Shown: positions 40,405-43,794 of the stretch, in pieces | Layout of the letters: the number at the start of each line of letters is the position of its first letter | How positions within the stretch are numbered: the first letter of the stretch is position 1 | NCBI GenBank assembly: GCA_965206595.1 | Contig: OZ242214.1 | Coordinates: forward strand, 2,400,001 to 2,464,000 | From: Candidatus Latescibacterota bacterium | Lineage (GTDB): Bacteria; Latescibacterota; UBA2968; UBA8231 | Direction of reading: 5' to 3' | DNA length: 64,000 nucleotides | Program-made: the position numbers and the translations under genes | The notes under the pieces: generated by a model | What the model was told of the DNA's origin: nothing | Database searches by the model: none | The model's input: only the letters and a program-made list of their open reading frames with translations

Positions 40405-40743
40405 TCAGACGCACTTGCATTTCGGTGAAACCTTAGGTGGGTGATAACAATAACCCGAGCAACCGTTGTGGAACCCGCACCAGTAGTTACACGCCGCGCT
40501 GGAATAACACCCTGACCAGTGGAGAACCCCACTGCAATGCGCGGAGGCCTGGGGAGGTGACCCCAAAACGACCATTGCGGCGACGAGCAGGCCCCCGGTC
40601 CAAGCGACCGGAAACCCCTGCTTTGCGCTGACTTCCCCGGATTCGCTCCGGACGAACTCAGCGATGAACCCGCTCCCAAGAGCGGAACCAGCGGCCTCAA
40701 CGAGGCCTTGTGCGACCCCTATGGCCGCATTCAAGATATGCAT
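40405..40743 (-). CDS. Precursor: Flp-pilin-like leader plus Cys-rich defensin-like peptide
   Basis: 112 aa from ATG after GAGGA; FVRSESG-EVSAKQG, hydrophobic segment, ASA site, then 44-aa HCSGVLHWSGCYSSAACNYWCGFHNGCSGYCYHPPKVSPKCKCV. Confidence 0.8.
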   Translation of the reverse strand: MHILNAAIGVAQGLVEAAGSALGSGFIAEFVRSESGEVSAKQGFPVAWTGGLLVAAMVVLGSPPQASAHCSGVLHWSGCYSSAACNYWCGFHNGCSGYCYHPPKVSPKCKCV

Positions 40744-40855
40744 TTTTTCATCCTCATCGGATAAAGGTTTTTCAACGATGCCTCCCCTTCCCCACCCCTT
40801 GAAACTTCGCGCAGCCACCTGCGCGTCGATAGCGGCCTCACCCTCCTTTCTTCCG

Positions 40856-41929
40856 TTATCCCCCTCTCAGCCATATGCCGAGGTCAATCAAGGGGGGCGC
40901 CAGGTTGCCGGCGAACACCGCGGTCAGCAGCGCCCCGGCGACGATGAATGGGACGAACGGGAAGCCTTGTTCCCGCTCGATGGAACTTTTCTCCGGCAGC
41001 CCGGGGTTTCCCAACTTCCGCAGGTGGTTCGCCTGCTTCTTCGACAACGGCTGGCCCGCCTCGCAGACCACTATTCCGTCCGCGGCCTCCAGCTCCAGGC
41101 GGTGCCGGGGCACGTCCCCGTCCCGGACTTCCTCTGCCGAAACCGTGCGCACCAGGGCGCGCCCGTACTGGAAGCGCACCTGCAGGTAAACCACTTCGAG
41201 CACCCAGAGGGCCCCCAGCATCAGCACGTAGGTCTGCCAGGCCCCGGTGGTATGGGACAGGTAGAGCAAGGCGGCGATCCCCGGAGGAAGGATCACGGTC
41301 CAGTACTTCTCTTCCAGTCCCCGATCGAGCAGGCGGTAGCCGACCACCAAGGCCGCCAGCGCTTCGAGGTAACTGAGCGGGCGCTGCAGCACCAGCCAGG
41401 CGAAAGCCAGGGCGAGACCCAGAAGCCCGGCCAAGCCCCAGGCGGCCTGCAACCACTGTCTTCCACCGGGACGGGCGGCCTGCGATCTGCCTTCTTCTTT
41501 GGGCTCGCGTCGCCACAGCGGCACCAGCAGCAGCACGAGCAGGTAGCAGATCAGACTGTTCAGGATCAGGGCGAACGGGGCAGCCTGCATGGCCAGCGGT
41601 TCGGGCGACGGGCACAGGCTCGGCGGAAGGGCAACCACCGCGGCCCAGAACAGCTTGGCGTCTCCCGGGGCCCAGAAGCCGAACAGGGTCAGCCCCACGG
41701 CCACCGCCAAGCCGATCCCGAGCAAGGCGGCGACGCGGCCGAAGGTGGTCACGTCGAGGCCCACCATGACCGCCTGCCCGACCAGCCCGATCCCGAGAAG
41801 GGTCAGGGTGTAGCGGTTGGGCACCCACCTCGCCTTCAGGTCGGTGCAACTGGTGTAGAAGCCGGCCGTCAGCAGGCTGGCGAGCATGGCCGTCTCGACG
41901 AGAAAGACCGGGTCGGTGAACAGGTTCAT
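40856..41929 (-). CDS. A24-family prepilin peptidase (TadV/CpaA/FlaK-like)
   Basis: TDLKARWVPN and APGDAKL catalytic-Asp motifs, C-terminal PFVPFI, multiple TM helices; no N-terminal Cys/Zn domain. Confidence 0.85.
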   Translation of the reverse strand: MNLFTDPVFLVETAMLASLLTAGFYTSCTDLKARWVPNRYTLTLLGIGLVGQAVMVGLDVTTFGRVAALLGIGLAVAVGLTLFGFWAPGDAKLFWAAVVALPPSLCPSPEPLAMQAAPFALILNSLICYLLVLLLVPLWRREPKEEGRSQAARPGGRQWLQAAWGLAGLLGLALAFAWLVLQRPLSYLEALAALVVGYRLLDRGLEEKYWTVILPPGIAALLYLSHTTGAWQTYVLMLGALWVLEVVYLQVRFQYGRALVRTVSAEEVRDGDVPRHRLELEAADGIVVCEAGQPLSKKQANHLRKLGNPGLPEKSSIEREQGFPFVPFIVAGALLTAVFAGNLAPPLIDLGIWLRGG

Positions 41930-42525
41930 CGGCTCCCCTTCCGCCCGAGGGCGTCGGCGACCAGGGTCCCTACCAGCTTGGCTCCCTCCGGCTCCCCGAC
42001 GCCGGAACCGGCCACCTTGCCCTCGGCGTCGAGCAGGTAGGTCGTGGGCACGCCGCTGGTCCGGTAGGCGTCGAAGGTGCTGCCGTCGGCATCCACCAAC
42101 ACCGGAAACTGGGTTGCCAGTTCGGCCTGCAGCTCGGCCTCTTCCTGCGTCGGCTCCCGGCCTGTGTCGCCCCCGCGTTGGATGAACAGCATGCGTTTGC
42201 CCAGGTCGGGCAGTCCCTCGTCCAGGACGGTGCGCATAAGCTGGCGGCTGTACGGACAGGAGAAGCTGACGAACACGGCGGCCGACGATTCCCCTTTGAG
42301 ATCTTCCAGGCTGACGGTCCTCTCCCCGGCCGCATCCGAAAGCTCGAAGCCGGGGGCAGGCGCGCCCCGGGAGAGCAGGGCGGTCCCTTCATCGACCACG
42401 CGCAGGAGCAGGGAGGACTGAAGGTCCCGGTCCTCGGGCGGTTCTCCGGTCGCCAGGGCCGCGATCAACCCCAGCGCCAGCGCGCCTCCGGCCAGCACCG
42501 GCTTGAGAGCGTTGCGATCCATCAT
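41926..42525 (-). CDS. Membrane-anchored redoxin (AhpC/TSA fold, CxxS)
   Basis: GAPAPGFEL, VSLEDLKG, SFSCPYS, FPVLVD, GVPTTYLLDAEGKV. Confidence 0.82.
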   Translation of the reverse strand: MMDRNALKPVLAGGALALGLIAALATGEPPEDRDLQSSLLLRVVDEGTALLSRGAPAPGFELSDAAGERTVSLEDLKGESSAAVFVSFSCPYSRQLMRTVLDEGLPDLGKRMLFIQRGGDTGREPTQEEAELQAELATQFPVLVDADGSTFDAYRTSGVPTTYLLDAEGKVAGSGVGEPEGAKLVGTLVADALGRKGSR

Positions 42526-43067
42526 CCCCTTCCTCCCTCCGATTCGTTCCAGGCCGCCAGGACTTCGGTGATGCTGCGGCTGCCGGTGGCGGCGTGGCGG
42601 ACCACCCCGCGCCGGTCGATGAGCAGGGCGCTGGGCACCCCGCGCACGTCGTAGAGCCGATGCACCGCCTGCCCTTGGTCGTGTCCGATTGCCAGAGTGA
42701 CCTCTCCGATGTGGGCCTGCACCAGGTCCGGGTCGCCCGCGGCGACGGCGACGATGGGCAGCACTTCGGCCGCCTTGGCCACCGCCGGGTAGGCGGCCTT
42801 GCAGGCCCCGCACGCGGCGTCGGTGAAGTAGAGCAGCCAGGCATCGGCCCCCCGGGCGCTGGCCAGAGACACGGTTGCCCCGCCAAGGCCGGGCAGCGTG
42901 AAGTCCGGCGCCTGCCGGCCCAGCAGGTGGGCGAATGGCTTGGGCGGCAGGCCTGGCGGAGCCCCGGTTTCCAGGCGCGCGCCGATGCCGATGCACAGGG
43001 CCAGCAGCAAGCCGACGGCCGCGGACACCGCCTTTACCATGGGATTCATCCCGGAAGGATCAGCCAT
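42522..43067 (-). CDS. TlpA-like thiol-disulfide oxidoreductase (CGAC)
   Basis: N-terminal anchor, GRQAPDFTLP, ACGACK, YDVRGVPSALLIDRRG. Confidence 0.85.
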   Translation of the reverse strand: MADPSGMNPMVKAVSAAVGLLLALCIGIGARLETGAPPGLPPKPFAHLLGRQAPDFTLPGLGGATVSLASARGADAWLLYFTDAACGACKAAYPAVAKAAEVLPIVAVAAGDPDLVQAHIGEVTLAIGHDQGQAVHRLYDVRGVPSALLIDRRGVVRHAATGSRSITEVLAAWNESEGGRG

Positions 43068-43671
43068 TTCCTTTGCTTTCGGTTGGCGGTCTCGAGGCGA
43101 ACCAGGAACGCAGCCCGCGCAGCTCTTTCAGCATGGCCCCGACCGTCAGCGTTGCCCCGCTGATGCCATCCAGGTCTTTGCCGACCCGCAACGAATCGCC
43201 CAGGGAGGTCCCTTTCAGTTGGGACAGGAACGCGTCCGGATCGAAGAAGCCGCCCTCCTTCTCCCAGGCTTCCAGGGGCGCAACCCCGGCTATCTCTTGC
43301 GTCGAGGGGGTCAGGTAGACCGCGGCCAGCAGGTCGCGGCAGGTGCTGCAGGCGATGTCGTGGCGCACCAGGGCCAGGGCGTAGACCGGGCGGCCGTTGT
43401 CGGAGACCCGGTAGAGCTGCAGCAGGCCGGAGCGGGGCAGGGGACGGGCTTCGTGGATCAACCGGAGGTCGATGGAAGCGAGCGCAGAGTCGAACTGTCG
43501 GGTGGTGGCGAGGAGCTGTGTCGCGGAGGGGAGCGCCGGAAGCGCGGGAGCGAAGTGGCGGGCGCGGGCTTCGGAGTAGAAGTGAAGGAGGGCGGCGACT
43601 CCGCCGGTCAGGCCCAGGATCAGGCCGCAGGATATCAGTACTGCAGGCTTGCGGGAGGTCATGCCTTCCAA
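43060..43671 (-). CDS. Exported FMN-binding-domain protein with CxxC
   Basis: N-terminal TM helix, HDIACSTCRD, LDGISGATLT flavinylation-type motif. Confidence 0.8.
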   Translation of the reverse strand: MEGMTSRKPAVLISCGLILGLTGGVAALLHFYSEARARHFAPALPALPSATQLLATTRQFDSALASIDLRLIHEARPLPRSGLLQLYRVSDNGRPVYALALVRHDIACSTCRDLLAAVYLTPSTQEIAGVAPLEAWEKEGGFFDPDAFLSQLKGTSLGDSLRVGKDLDGISGATLTVGAMLKELRGLRSWFASRPPTESKGNG

Positions 43672-43764
43672 ACCGCCTTGCAGTGAGAGGGATCACCCCG
43701 GCTTCGCGGACCGCCCAACCTTGCCCCGCCGCGCCTGCCGTTTGTGCCGATCAAAGACGCACAT

Positions 43765-43794
43765 AGGGTAAGGGGGGGGGCAAAAAAAGGTCAA
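43765..43794 (-). promoter_or_regulatory. Candidate sigma-70 promoter with homopolymeric spacer
   Basis: TTGACC-18 nt (T7 G C9 T)-TACCCT, about 95 nt upstream of the first gene of the cluster. Confidence 0.5.

Follow-up and report, generated by a model that had tools for sequence, protein, structure and literature searches.

Introduction

Flp pilins of the type IVc (Tad) systems share the motif GXXXXEY (PMC10934763). The His-Xaa-Ser (HXS) system, in its HxsABCD form, is an anti-phage system; more than 99.8% of HXS systems consist of four proteins and nearly all are found in Pseudomonadota, rare architectures may hold extra genes, and the word 'peptidase' does not occur in the main text of the description (PMC13128918). 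Covalent flavinylation involves ApbE and the motif [S/T]GA[S/T] (PMC8238504), and the available text of this 2021 survey of flavinylation clusters contains neither 'prepilin' nor 'A24' and has 'peptidase' in one reference title only. Similarly, the words aspartic, A24 and pilin are all absent from the available part of a 2023 review of the leader proteases of peptides that are made on ribosomes and then modified post-translationally (RiPPs). Here we analyse a 64,000-nucleotide stretch of a Candidatus Latescibacterota bacterium (assembly GCA_965206595.1, contig OZ242214.1, positions 2,400,001 to 2,464,000 of the forward strand; hereafter the window), in which a gene for an A24 peptidase, the family of the prepilin peptidases, is clustered with three redox genes and the gene of a small Cys-rich precursor. 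In the literature within reach, which did not extend to subscription journals and supplements, we found no description of this module or of an A24 peptidase in a peptide-maturation cluster.

We think it probable, on balance, that the locus is an accessory, multi-copy maturation module of Latescibacterota for hypervariable, disulfide-rich secreted mini-proteins, in which the A24 peptidase removes the leader and a flavin/thiol relay serves the disulfides. The genome from which the window is taken is a single 7.05-Mb contig, estimated to be 92.9% complete.

Results

A five-gene module on the minus strand

The module occupies positions 40405-43671 of the window and consists of five genes, encoding a flavin mononucleotide (FMN)-binding protein with a CxxC motif, a TlpA-like redoxin, a CxxS redoxin, the A24 peptidase and the precursor. 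Its features are as follows.

43063-43671, minus strand: membrane-anchored FMN_bind-like protein with CSTC and DGISGAT, 203 aa (Pfam FMN_bind E 0.005, 17.9 bits)
42525-43067, minus strand: TlpA/ResA-like thioredoxin-fold protein with CGAC and an N-terminal anchor, 181 aa (AhpC-TSA 48.3 bits, Redoxin 37.9 bits)
41929-42525, minus strand: second thioredoxin-fold protein, monothiol CPYS, 199 aa, ATG at 42525 (AhpC-TSA 35.2 bits)
40859-41929, minus strand: long-form A24 (GxGD-type) aspartyl peptidase, 357 aa (PF01478 34.8 bits, cut-off 26.5)
40636-40743, minus strand: precursor leader, residues 1-36, Flp/HxsA3-type, ending FVRSESG; proposed A24 cut after Gly36
40540-40635, minus strand: precursor residues 37-68, Sec-type signal segment as read from sequence and alignments
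40408-40539, minus strand: precursor core, residues 69-112, 44 aa with 8 Cys (C-x8-C-x5-C-x3-C-x5-C-x3-C-x9-C-x-C), from sequence and model
40362-40398, minus strand: 17-bp hairpin directly 3' of the precursor stop, -34 kcal/mol, z = -6.7

Overlaps of 8, 4 and 4 nt join the first four genes, which are translationally coupled; the latter two junctions read ATGA. The precursor gene starts with an ATG at 40743, 112 nt past the peptidase stop, and ends with a stop at 40405-40407; its product has 112 aa, and all 8 Cys fall within the last 44 residues. None of 200 shuffled sequences folded as stably as the hairpin, which has no U-tract on the minus strand. This layout of four overlapping genes, a Cys-rich precursor 112 bp further on and a strong hairpin had been put forward in an earlier reading of the window (the original prediction), and was confirmed in full by coordinates and folding. 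The original prediction had recognized no described class in this architecture. NCBIfam named neither any of the five locus proteins nor the precursor family above its cut-offs, Pfam likewise placed the precursors in no named family, and PADLOC gave no match among the six window proteins searched.

The module recurs within the genome and across the phylum

A tblastn search of the same genome revealed a second full set of FMN protein, TlpA-like protein, CxxS protein, A24 peptidase and precursor at 5328302-5331592. Its proteins are 79-88% identical to those of the window, except for the precursor, which is only 41% identical. Partial sets were also found: a module copy at 595292-597267 whose A24 gene is cut after about 77 residues, a divergent FMN gene with the C-terminal half of an A24 gene and a Cys-less leader open reading frame (ORF) at about 2086385-2087645 and 2091283-2091477, and fragments of FMN and TlpA genes at 4955466-4955959. 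To judge from these sequences, the module turns over within one genome and leaves decayed copies. PF01478 matched only the window gene, the second full copy at 5.33 Mb and the truncated copy at 0.597 Mb. A hidden Markov model (HMM) of the leader, built from close precursors, gave three matches in this genome, two of them intact, one beside each full module, and the third Cys-less and near a remnant.

Beyond this genome, the A24 gene still adjoins the genes of the redoxins and of the FMN protein at identities as low as about 26-35%, and three gene orders occur. Among 20 distant loci (L041-L060), a small Cys-rich ORF matching the leader HMM stands beside the module in every one, often in tandem. 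We then counted neighbours within 6 kb on either side in 36 further loci with named sources (L061-L096; nearly all titled Candidatus Latescibacterota and two Gemmatimonadota). A leader ORF was present in 31 of the 36, a redoxin in 33 and the FMN protein in 25; no leader ORF was seen within this distance in L065, L066, L083, L089 and L093. Redoxin and FMN neighbours are thus conserved despite shuffled gene order, as the original prediction had anticipated. Other neighbours are specific to subgroups, namely transglutaminase-like, sigma-54 activator, TPR, GT2 glycosyltransferase and DUF4159 proteins.

At the level of genomes, the A24 family occurs in 32 of 168 from the phylum, and a profile of the leader alone (A3) matches in 38 of the 168, with up to 20 matches per genome. 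All 32 genomes with the A24 family carry leader matches, versus 6 of the 136 genomes that lack it, counts that show co-inheritance and not statistical proof, since related genomes are not independent and the figures overstate the support. The distribution is patchy within genera and the two elements coincide: in one genus (g18) both are found in the same 5 of 10 genomes, and in another (g24) in the same 2 of 15. The expectation that homologues of the peptidase would co-occur with small Cys-rich precursors was therefore borne out both by locus (31/36) and by genome (32/32 versus 6/136). Chance juxtaposition or an annotation artefact was considered and rejected, as the arrangement is met again elsewhere in this genome and in other genomes of the phylum.

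Promoter-like sites were also noted in part of the family. Near-consensus sigma-54 promoters (TGGCACG-N4-TTGC, 10-11 of 12 positions) lie about 140 nt upstream of one clade of precursors, preceding L080:298, L055:190, L050:1790, L049:14659-14937(-), L052:14437-14715(-) and L056:12054-12326(-). In 11 of the 36 loci a sigma-54 activator with a Reg_prop/Y_Y_Y sensor is found near the A24 gene, the median distance being about 2.4 kb upstream. For the window precursor a promoter of this kind was rejected, the sequence there matching only 6 of the 12 consensus positions.

The precursors combine a conserved leader with a Sec-type segment

We aligned 37 precursors and found a common order of elements: M..L.EF..S.SG, then 4-5 residues with R or K among them, (G)L.L(G)W, a hydrophobic run of about 14 residues, (P/G)..A.A and a core of 30-71 residues. 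The only invariant column of the leader is the Gly of SxSG (G36 in the window); at least 90% of the sequences have F30 and W48. In the window precursor, residues 37-68 hold a basic residue, then 'FPVAW', about 14 residues of hydrophobic character and PPQASA, which ends in an AxA motif. A basic residue, a short hydrophobic region (h-region) and AxA together would make a normal substrate of signal peptidase I, for which we propose a site after Ala68.

The leader itself is shaped like those of Flp pilins. Genuine Flp_Fap matches from another genome read MDALRRLHTDESG/QGMTEYILIVV.. (slashes stand for proposed cuts), and a leader of like shape is seen in MDSLREFFTSSSG/LAPARQGLGLGW.. and in ..FVRSESG/EVSAKQGFPVAW.. 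of the window. Because of this shape, the A24 cut is placed, tentatively, after the invariant Gly. The Gly immediately before the hydrophobic stretch (KQG/F) was also considered, as a class III cleavage site, and was set aside: the position varies (G, A, V, I, S) and the Gly of SxSG is invariant. The pilin leader of the original prediction therefore stands in so far as the leader is of Flp type and ends in an invariant Gly; it does not stand as a full pilin N-terminus, for the EY motif is missing and a Sec-type AxA follows.

A profile search of 5.8 billion proteins returned 424 clusters at E <= 0.001; among the 120 clusters listed none has a Pfam domain, and any name given by the source is 'hypothetical protein'. 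The ESM Atlas provided leads only, namely clusters of Poribacteria hypothetical proteins at 0.82 and 0.78.

The cores are hypervariable and may be defensin-like

In the 37 precursors the cores contain 4-12 Cys, with an even count in 32 and 8 the commonest number. Compared with the nearest orthologue, whose A24 peptidase is 89% identical, the leader segment of the window precursor is identical at 35 of 43 positions (81%) and the core at 10 of 44 (23%). The variable cores that the original prediction had anticipated are present, behind conserved leaders.

An AlphaFold model built with the 37-row alignment gave a predicted local distance difference test score (pLDDT) of 81-85 for core residues 80-112 of the window precursor. 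The modelled core has a helix at 82-93 with C85-x3-C89 and strands at 97-100 (with C99) and 108-111 (with C109-x-C111), and C85, C89, C99, C109 and C111 correspond to the Cys columns that hardly vary in the family alignment. Foldseek matches of the core, 48 of which were listed, are nearly all of the cysteine-stabilized alpha-beta (CSαβ) type (scorpion toxins, plant and fungal defensins, brazzein), the better ones with a root-mean-square deviation of 1.2-2.5 Å across 35-45 columns; E-values are only 0.05-2. A defensin-like CSαβ fold for the window core is plausible but not established, and the model backs the original prediction of a defensin precursor to this extent. The likeness to cis-defensins and other CSαβ proteins consists of the framework CxxxC ... 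C ... CxC and of the modelled helix with a two-stranded sheet. The family differs from them in that no membership of a sequence family was found (among the 37 precursors Gamma-thionin matched one at E 0.1 and actinodefensin one at E 0.68, neither convincing) and in that the Cys patterns of its other members differ.

Large members of the family, of 257-330 aa, were observed at L055:6554-7324, L049:10686-11675(-), L080:3423-4412 and L144:5771-6616(-). They share this leader and have Cys modules in two or three repeats, a C-terminal FlgD_ig domain and weak matches to sorting tails of the type IX secretion system (T9SS). Some members of the family are thus probably exported to the cell surface.

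The peptidase is a long-form A24 enzyme

The PF01478 match covers residues 19-132 of the peptidase. Across 30 A24 sequences of 27-89% identity, D30 (in YTDLxxRxVPN) and G89-D90 (in WAPGDAKL) are invariant, and so is a C-terminal PF.P helix. D30 and D90 are, we assume, the catalytic positions of A24 enzymes, of which the first comes after TM1 and the second belongs to a G-x-G-D-like motif, and the invariance of both Asp over this range argues that the protein is an active protease. About ten helices make up most of the AlphaFold model (pLDDT 77.5); a small beta-rich domain at residues ~259-321 would, by the positive-inside rule, be cytoplasmic. In a Foldseek search with the model, FlaK (3s0x) was the sole sensible match and a weak one (probability 0.75-0.90, E 0.67-0.97, template modelling score on the target 0.49-0.50), and a sequence search of the PDB gave no match.

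We also predicted a complex of the peptidase with leader residues 16-70. The score was 0.43 versus 0.00 for the best of three controls, with contacts agreeing by at least 91% between runs and a partner pLDDT of at least 61. Among 80 solved complexes 58 pass the mark applied to such scores, as do 2 among 110 mismatched pairs, but the passes at 0.60 or lower comprise only 7 of the 80 and both of these mismatches. The prediction supports the pairing weakly.

The redox genes suggest a flavin-linked thiol relay

All three redox proteins have a hydrophobic anchor at the N-terminus. In 25 distinct homologues of the FMN protein the columns of the CxxC and of D-G-x-x-G-A-T are each kept in at least 90%, and the window protein carries SGAT, a form of the flavinylation motif; a single ApbE gene (263.8 bits) lies elsewhere in the genome. 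The TlpA-like protein exceeds the cut-offs of both AhpC-TSA and Redoxin and does not reach the NCBIfam equivalog cut-offs for ResA, DsbE and MauD; among 32 homologues, every column of its C-x-A-C is conserved in at least 90%. In 29 homologues of the CxxS protein, this level is reached by just two residues of the motif, the first Cys and the Tyr of C-x-Y. One DsbD_TM gene is found elsewhere in the genome, and a search of the genome gave no match to DsbB or VKOR. From these genes we infer a thiol-disulfide relay wired to a covalent flavin that serves the Cys-rich cores, with generation of disulfides and their isomerisation or reduction both possible.

The locus shares with TlpA, ResA, CcmG, MauD and ApbE-flavinylated systems the anchored CxxC thioredoxin-fold proteins and an FMN_bind domain with a motif of the [S/T]GA[S/T] type, ApbE being encoded in the genome. 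It differs from them in that the FMN_bind protein bears a conserved CxxC of its own and is linked to an A24 peptidase and Cys-rich precursors.

The module is neither a Tad nor an ordinary pilus locus

Absence of tad and pil genes from the window, noted in the original prediction, holds for the whole genome, in which T2SSE (PF00437), T2SSF (PF00482), N_methyl (PF07963) and Flp (PF04964) had no match; control genomes were matched by the same searches. Among the 32 genomes with the A24 family, T2SSE rises above its cut-off in just four (G123, G126, G143, G145). An ordinary tad or pil locus was therefore rejected, since the genome lacks the assembly genes and 28 of the 32 genomes have no T2SSE above cut-off; the earlier supposition that homologues of the peptidase would lie outside tad loci is upheld by the same counts.

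The locus resembles the Flp/TadV-CpaA (type IVc, Tad) systems in its A24 peptidase with both Asp and in a short substrate leader whose end, ..(D/S)E(S/D)G, is also found in genuine Flp_Fap matches. It differs in the missing Tad ATPase, platform protein and pilins of the genome, in precursors without GXXXXEY, in a peptidase that, at ~357 aa, has additional helices as well as a soluble domain, and in a substrate that bears a Sec-type AxA site and a Cys-rich domain. Because the EY motif and the assembly genes are absent, the Latescibacterota module is not a Flp/Tad system.

The system resembles in its working a cluster for leader-guided maturation of peptides. With leader-guided RiPP and bacteriocin systems the locus has in common a conserved leader, a hypervariable core, often several precursor genes and a protease in the cluster. 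Its protease differs, being an intramembrane aspartyl enzyme of the A24 family; the only modification to be expected from the genes is disulfide formation, and a C39/ABC exporter is lacking.

Relatives outside the phylum lie in HXS-like clusters

Weaker full-length relatives of the A24 peptidase (~20-33% identity) were found in metagenome-assembled genomes (MAGs) titled Poribacteria, Anaerolineales, Clostridia, Paceibacterota, Methanosarcinales and DPANN archaea. No FMN or redoxin genes were detected at these outgroup loci by tblastn. Instead, an HxsB-like radical S-adenosylmethionine (radical-SAM)/SPASM gene lies within 6 kb on either side of the A24 homologue in 25 of 41 outgroup loci. Used as tblastn queries, two HxsB-like proteins and an HxsD-like one had no match in loci L041-L096, and Hxs searches of the window's genome returned only a generic radical-SAM match of 22% identity at 4.73 Mb, far from the modules.

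The clearest HXS case is a Clostridia locus (L131) with the order hxsA3-hxsD-A24-hxsC-hxsB, in which all four Hxs models (NF038309, TIGR03976, TIGR03977 and TIGR03978) exceed the NCBIfam cut-offs. The long-form A24-like gene between hxsD and hxsC (L131:5962-6996) has no NCBIfam match, and a second such gene is present in a Woesearchaeota MAG (L122:5947-7017). HxsA3-type precursors of the Clostridia locus read ..KINDFLYEEEG/NISRGKILTVGSLLLIAGILFADEVYA/AHRSHSSHRSH.., and archaeal ones ..LKMFLLSEDG/RISKQ... The HxsA3 precursors of these clusters have Flp-like leaders with an invariant Gly at the end, and the long-form A24-like peptidase may be the missing protease for HxsA3 processing. Poribacteria and Anaerolineales loci carry the same leader on Cys-rich cores, together with an HxsB-like enzyme and an A24 homologue, and on the sequences are an intermediate architecture; their HxsB-like enzymes score under the cut-off (280-322 versus 370 bits), and an Anaerolineales locus (L098) has a weak HxsD-like match (32 versus 50 bits). 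Loci of this kind include L098:2077-2343, 2628-3017 and 11577-11891, L108:3289-3669 and 3949-4323, L115, L119 and L110.

Aligned with hhalign, the Latescibacterota and HXS leaders gave E 3.6e-4 across 28 columns, with Gly on Gly, and NF038309 matched 1 of the 37 precursors at E 0.0038, under its cut-off. In a quick A24 tree of 33 Latescibacterota-type and 4 radical-SAM-linked sequences, most outgroup ORFs having been removed by a motif filter, one branch parts the redox-linked from the radical-SAM-linked sequences (Shimodaira-Hasegawa-like approximate likelihood ratio test 95) and gives no direction.

The window locus is like the HxsA3-type HXS clusters in its homologous long-form A24-like membrane peptidase, in the plan of the leader (..F-L-x-x-E-E-G, basic residue, hydrophobic stretch, AxA) and in a small exported product. 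It differs in that HxsB, HxsC or HxsD does not occur beside any module of its genome, in a cargo modelled as a Cys-rich CSαβ-like core instead of HxS repeats, and in a maturation set of two thioredoxin-fold proteins and an FMN_bind/CxxC protein, all predicted to act outside the cytoplasm. Because HxsB, HxsC, HxsD and HxS repeats are absent, the Latescibacterota module is not a member of HXS. It looks like a relative of HXS, with a flavin/thiol-disulfide module in place of the radical-SAM maturases and Cys-rich cores where HXS has the HxS repeats. The architecture, which the original prediction had not recognized among described classes, is undescribed in the sense that no printed description was found, and is not wholly without precedent, given the recognisable relative in the HxsA3-type HXS clusters.

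Neighbouring genes

One neighbour of the module was examined as a possible component.

39258-40199, minus strand: 314-aa secreted protein, weak CBM9-like match, C-terminal tail ..AVESVSWARIKASLPE; a neighbour that does not belong to the core

This protein adjoins the precursor in both full modules of the genome and in genus-level relatives. It was set aside as a core component, being not adjacent in distant loci and present at 69 places in the genome. Its family (~300 aa) occupies these 69 distinct genomic places, 57 high-scoring segment pairs span at least 220 of the 314 aa, and further copies lie in the window at 28809-29735, 33758-34307, 35801-36103 and 36579-37466. The extreme C-terminal tail is strongly conserved (..(S/T)AVESVSWG(A)RIKASL..) and looks like an unrecognised C-terminal sorting or processing tag. 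An IS66-family transposase ORF (38120-39079, plus strand), matching positions 85-385 of the 387 of the model and possibly short at its N-terminus, lies 180 bp downstream of the 314-aa gene, and an RtcB RNA ligase gene (44162-45376, plus strand) lies upstream of the module on the opposite strand.

Discussion

We propose that the five genes form a maturation pathway, which would work as follows. The precursor would insert into the inner membrane with its N-terminus in, by means of the short hydrophobic segment, and the A24 peptidase would cut the Flp-type leader after the invariant Gly (residue 36) at the cytoplasmic face. The Cys-rich core, by then outside, would be oxidatively folded by the TlpA-like CxxC protein and the monothiol CxxS protein, both of which would trade electrons with the CxxC of the FMN_bind protein, which ApbE would flavinylate. 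The flavin could serve as electron sink or source in a genome that has no match to DsbB or VKOR. A cut by signal peptidase I at the AxA would free a peptide of about 40-70 aa into the periplasm, and the larger members with a FlgD_ig/T9SS-type C-terminal domain would go to the surface. The interpretation given in the original prediction is supported, each computational check that it had suggested having spoken for it. In one respect our proposal departs from the original prediction, which had called the pathway self-contained: ApbE is encoded elsewhere in the genome, signal peptidase I is presumably needed and no exporter was seen.

A number of observations weigh against this proposal. The Flp motif GXXXXEY is not matched by the precursors, which have R, K or H at +5, no EY and only the Gly in common, and Pfam Flp_Fap (PF04964) matches none of the 37. 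The precursors resemble ordinary Sec substrates with AxA, whose export could be explained without A24 cleavage. Six genomes have leader-like ORFs and no A24 match, and a search of five of them with the A1 profile (G065, the weakest match, being excluded) also gave no A24. One of the six, G088, is a single contig with an intact precursor and no module nearby; in two more, G091 has a precursor beside FMN and TlpA fragments and G141 a large T9SS-type member. The genomic co-occurrence is inflated by relatedness, as said above. Structural and profile comparisons are weak as well, with Foldseek E-values of at least 0.67 for the peptidase and at least 0.05 for the core, an hhalign probability of only 37% for the comparison with HXS leaders, and 17.9 bits for the FMN_bind match, under the 22-bit cut-off. 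Finally, the FMN protein is absent within 6 kb on either side in 11 of the 36 loci L061-L096, and no membrane quinone-linked partner was identified.

The precursors could be ordinary Sec-exported Cys-rich proteins whose conserved N-terminal motif is a targeting or chaperone-docking tag, the A24 protein then acting as a membrane scaffold or gatekeeper of the redox module, or, like a signal peptide peptidase, as a clearer of leftover signal peptides, rather than as a maturase. Nearly all precursors have the Sec-type h-region and AxA, the EY motif is missing from them, and in G088 an intact precursor exists where no A24 was found, all of which fits such a reading; yet both catalytic Asp are invariant at 27-89% identity, the sole invariant residue of the leader is a Gly in register with the cleavage-site Gly of Flp and HxsA3, and each of the 32 A24 genomes carries precursors, so that we consider this explanation rather unlikely. 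It is very unlikely, in our view, that the products are pilin-like, that is, that the hydrophobic helix is kept, the AxA goes unused and the proteins are membrane-anchored or form a non-canonical fibre or surface array with a Cys-rich head. A Flp-type leader, a peptidase of the TadV/CpaA/EppA type and the modelled hydrophobic helix at residues 43-60, following the leader, speak for it, but an assembly ATPase, a platform protein and an N_methyl pilin are all missing from the genome, the hydrophobic stretch spans only ~14 residues before P/G..AxA, and a basic residue occupies +5 where Flp pilins have Glu.

The redox genes could also be the centre of the module, which would then deal mainly with extracytoplasmic redox or metal handling (thiol stress, copper or iron), with the Cys-rich proteins as redox buffers or metal binders. 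The cores are indeed very rich in Cys, and elsewhere TlpA-type and flavinylated FMN_bind proteins take part in extracytosolic electron transfer, including iron assimilation, according to the available text of PMC8238504. Against this, the cores are hypervariable beyond their Cys framework (23% identity versus 81% for the leader between closest orthologues), a genome may hold up to 20 leader matches, the window core is modelled as a CSαβ disulfide scaffold, and relatives of the leader-peptidase pair sit in radical-SAM peptide-maturation clusters; we hold this explanation to be highly improbable. Maturation of secreted mini-proteins, with leader removal by A24 and a flavin/thiol relay, is the reading that we retain as probable.

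A broader reading, which we offer only tentatively, joins this module to its relatives. The combination of a Flp-type leader with a long-form A24 peptidase might be an unrecognised route for the maturation and export of small envelope effectors in both prokaryotic domains, common to HxsA3-type HXS (Clostridia, DPANN), to Cys-rich radical-SAM systems (Poribacteria, Anaerolineales) and to the Latescibacterota system. In Latescibacterota an extracytoplasmic, flavin-dependent relay, with the FMN_bind/CxxC protein feeding the thioredoxin-fold proteins, would generate disulfides in place of DsbB/VKOR, and the hypervariable defensin-like products might be defence effectors, either anti-phage in the periplasm, by analogy with HxsA, or antimicrobial.

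Prepilin peptidases count as components of type IV filament machines; the entire clade described here does without such a machine and is linked to peptide maturation. If this is true, an intramembrane aspartyl protease would join the known leader proteases, and the finding suggests which enzyme carries out the 'non-canonical' processing of N-termini, at least in HXS systems of the HxsA3 type. The module is also a candidate for a flavin-linked way to periplasmic disulfides, its genome having no DsbB or VKOR match. The 424 clusters of leader-tagged, hypervariable, disulfide-rich mini-proteins, which carry no functional annotation, could be mined as stable scaffolds or bioactive peptides.

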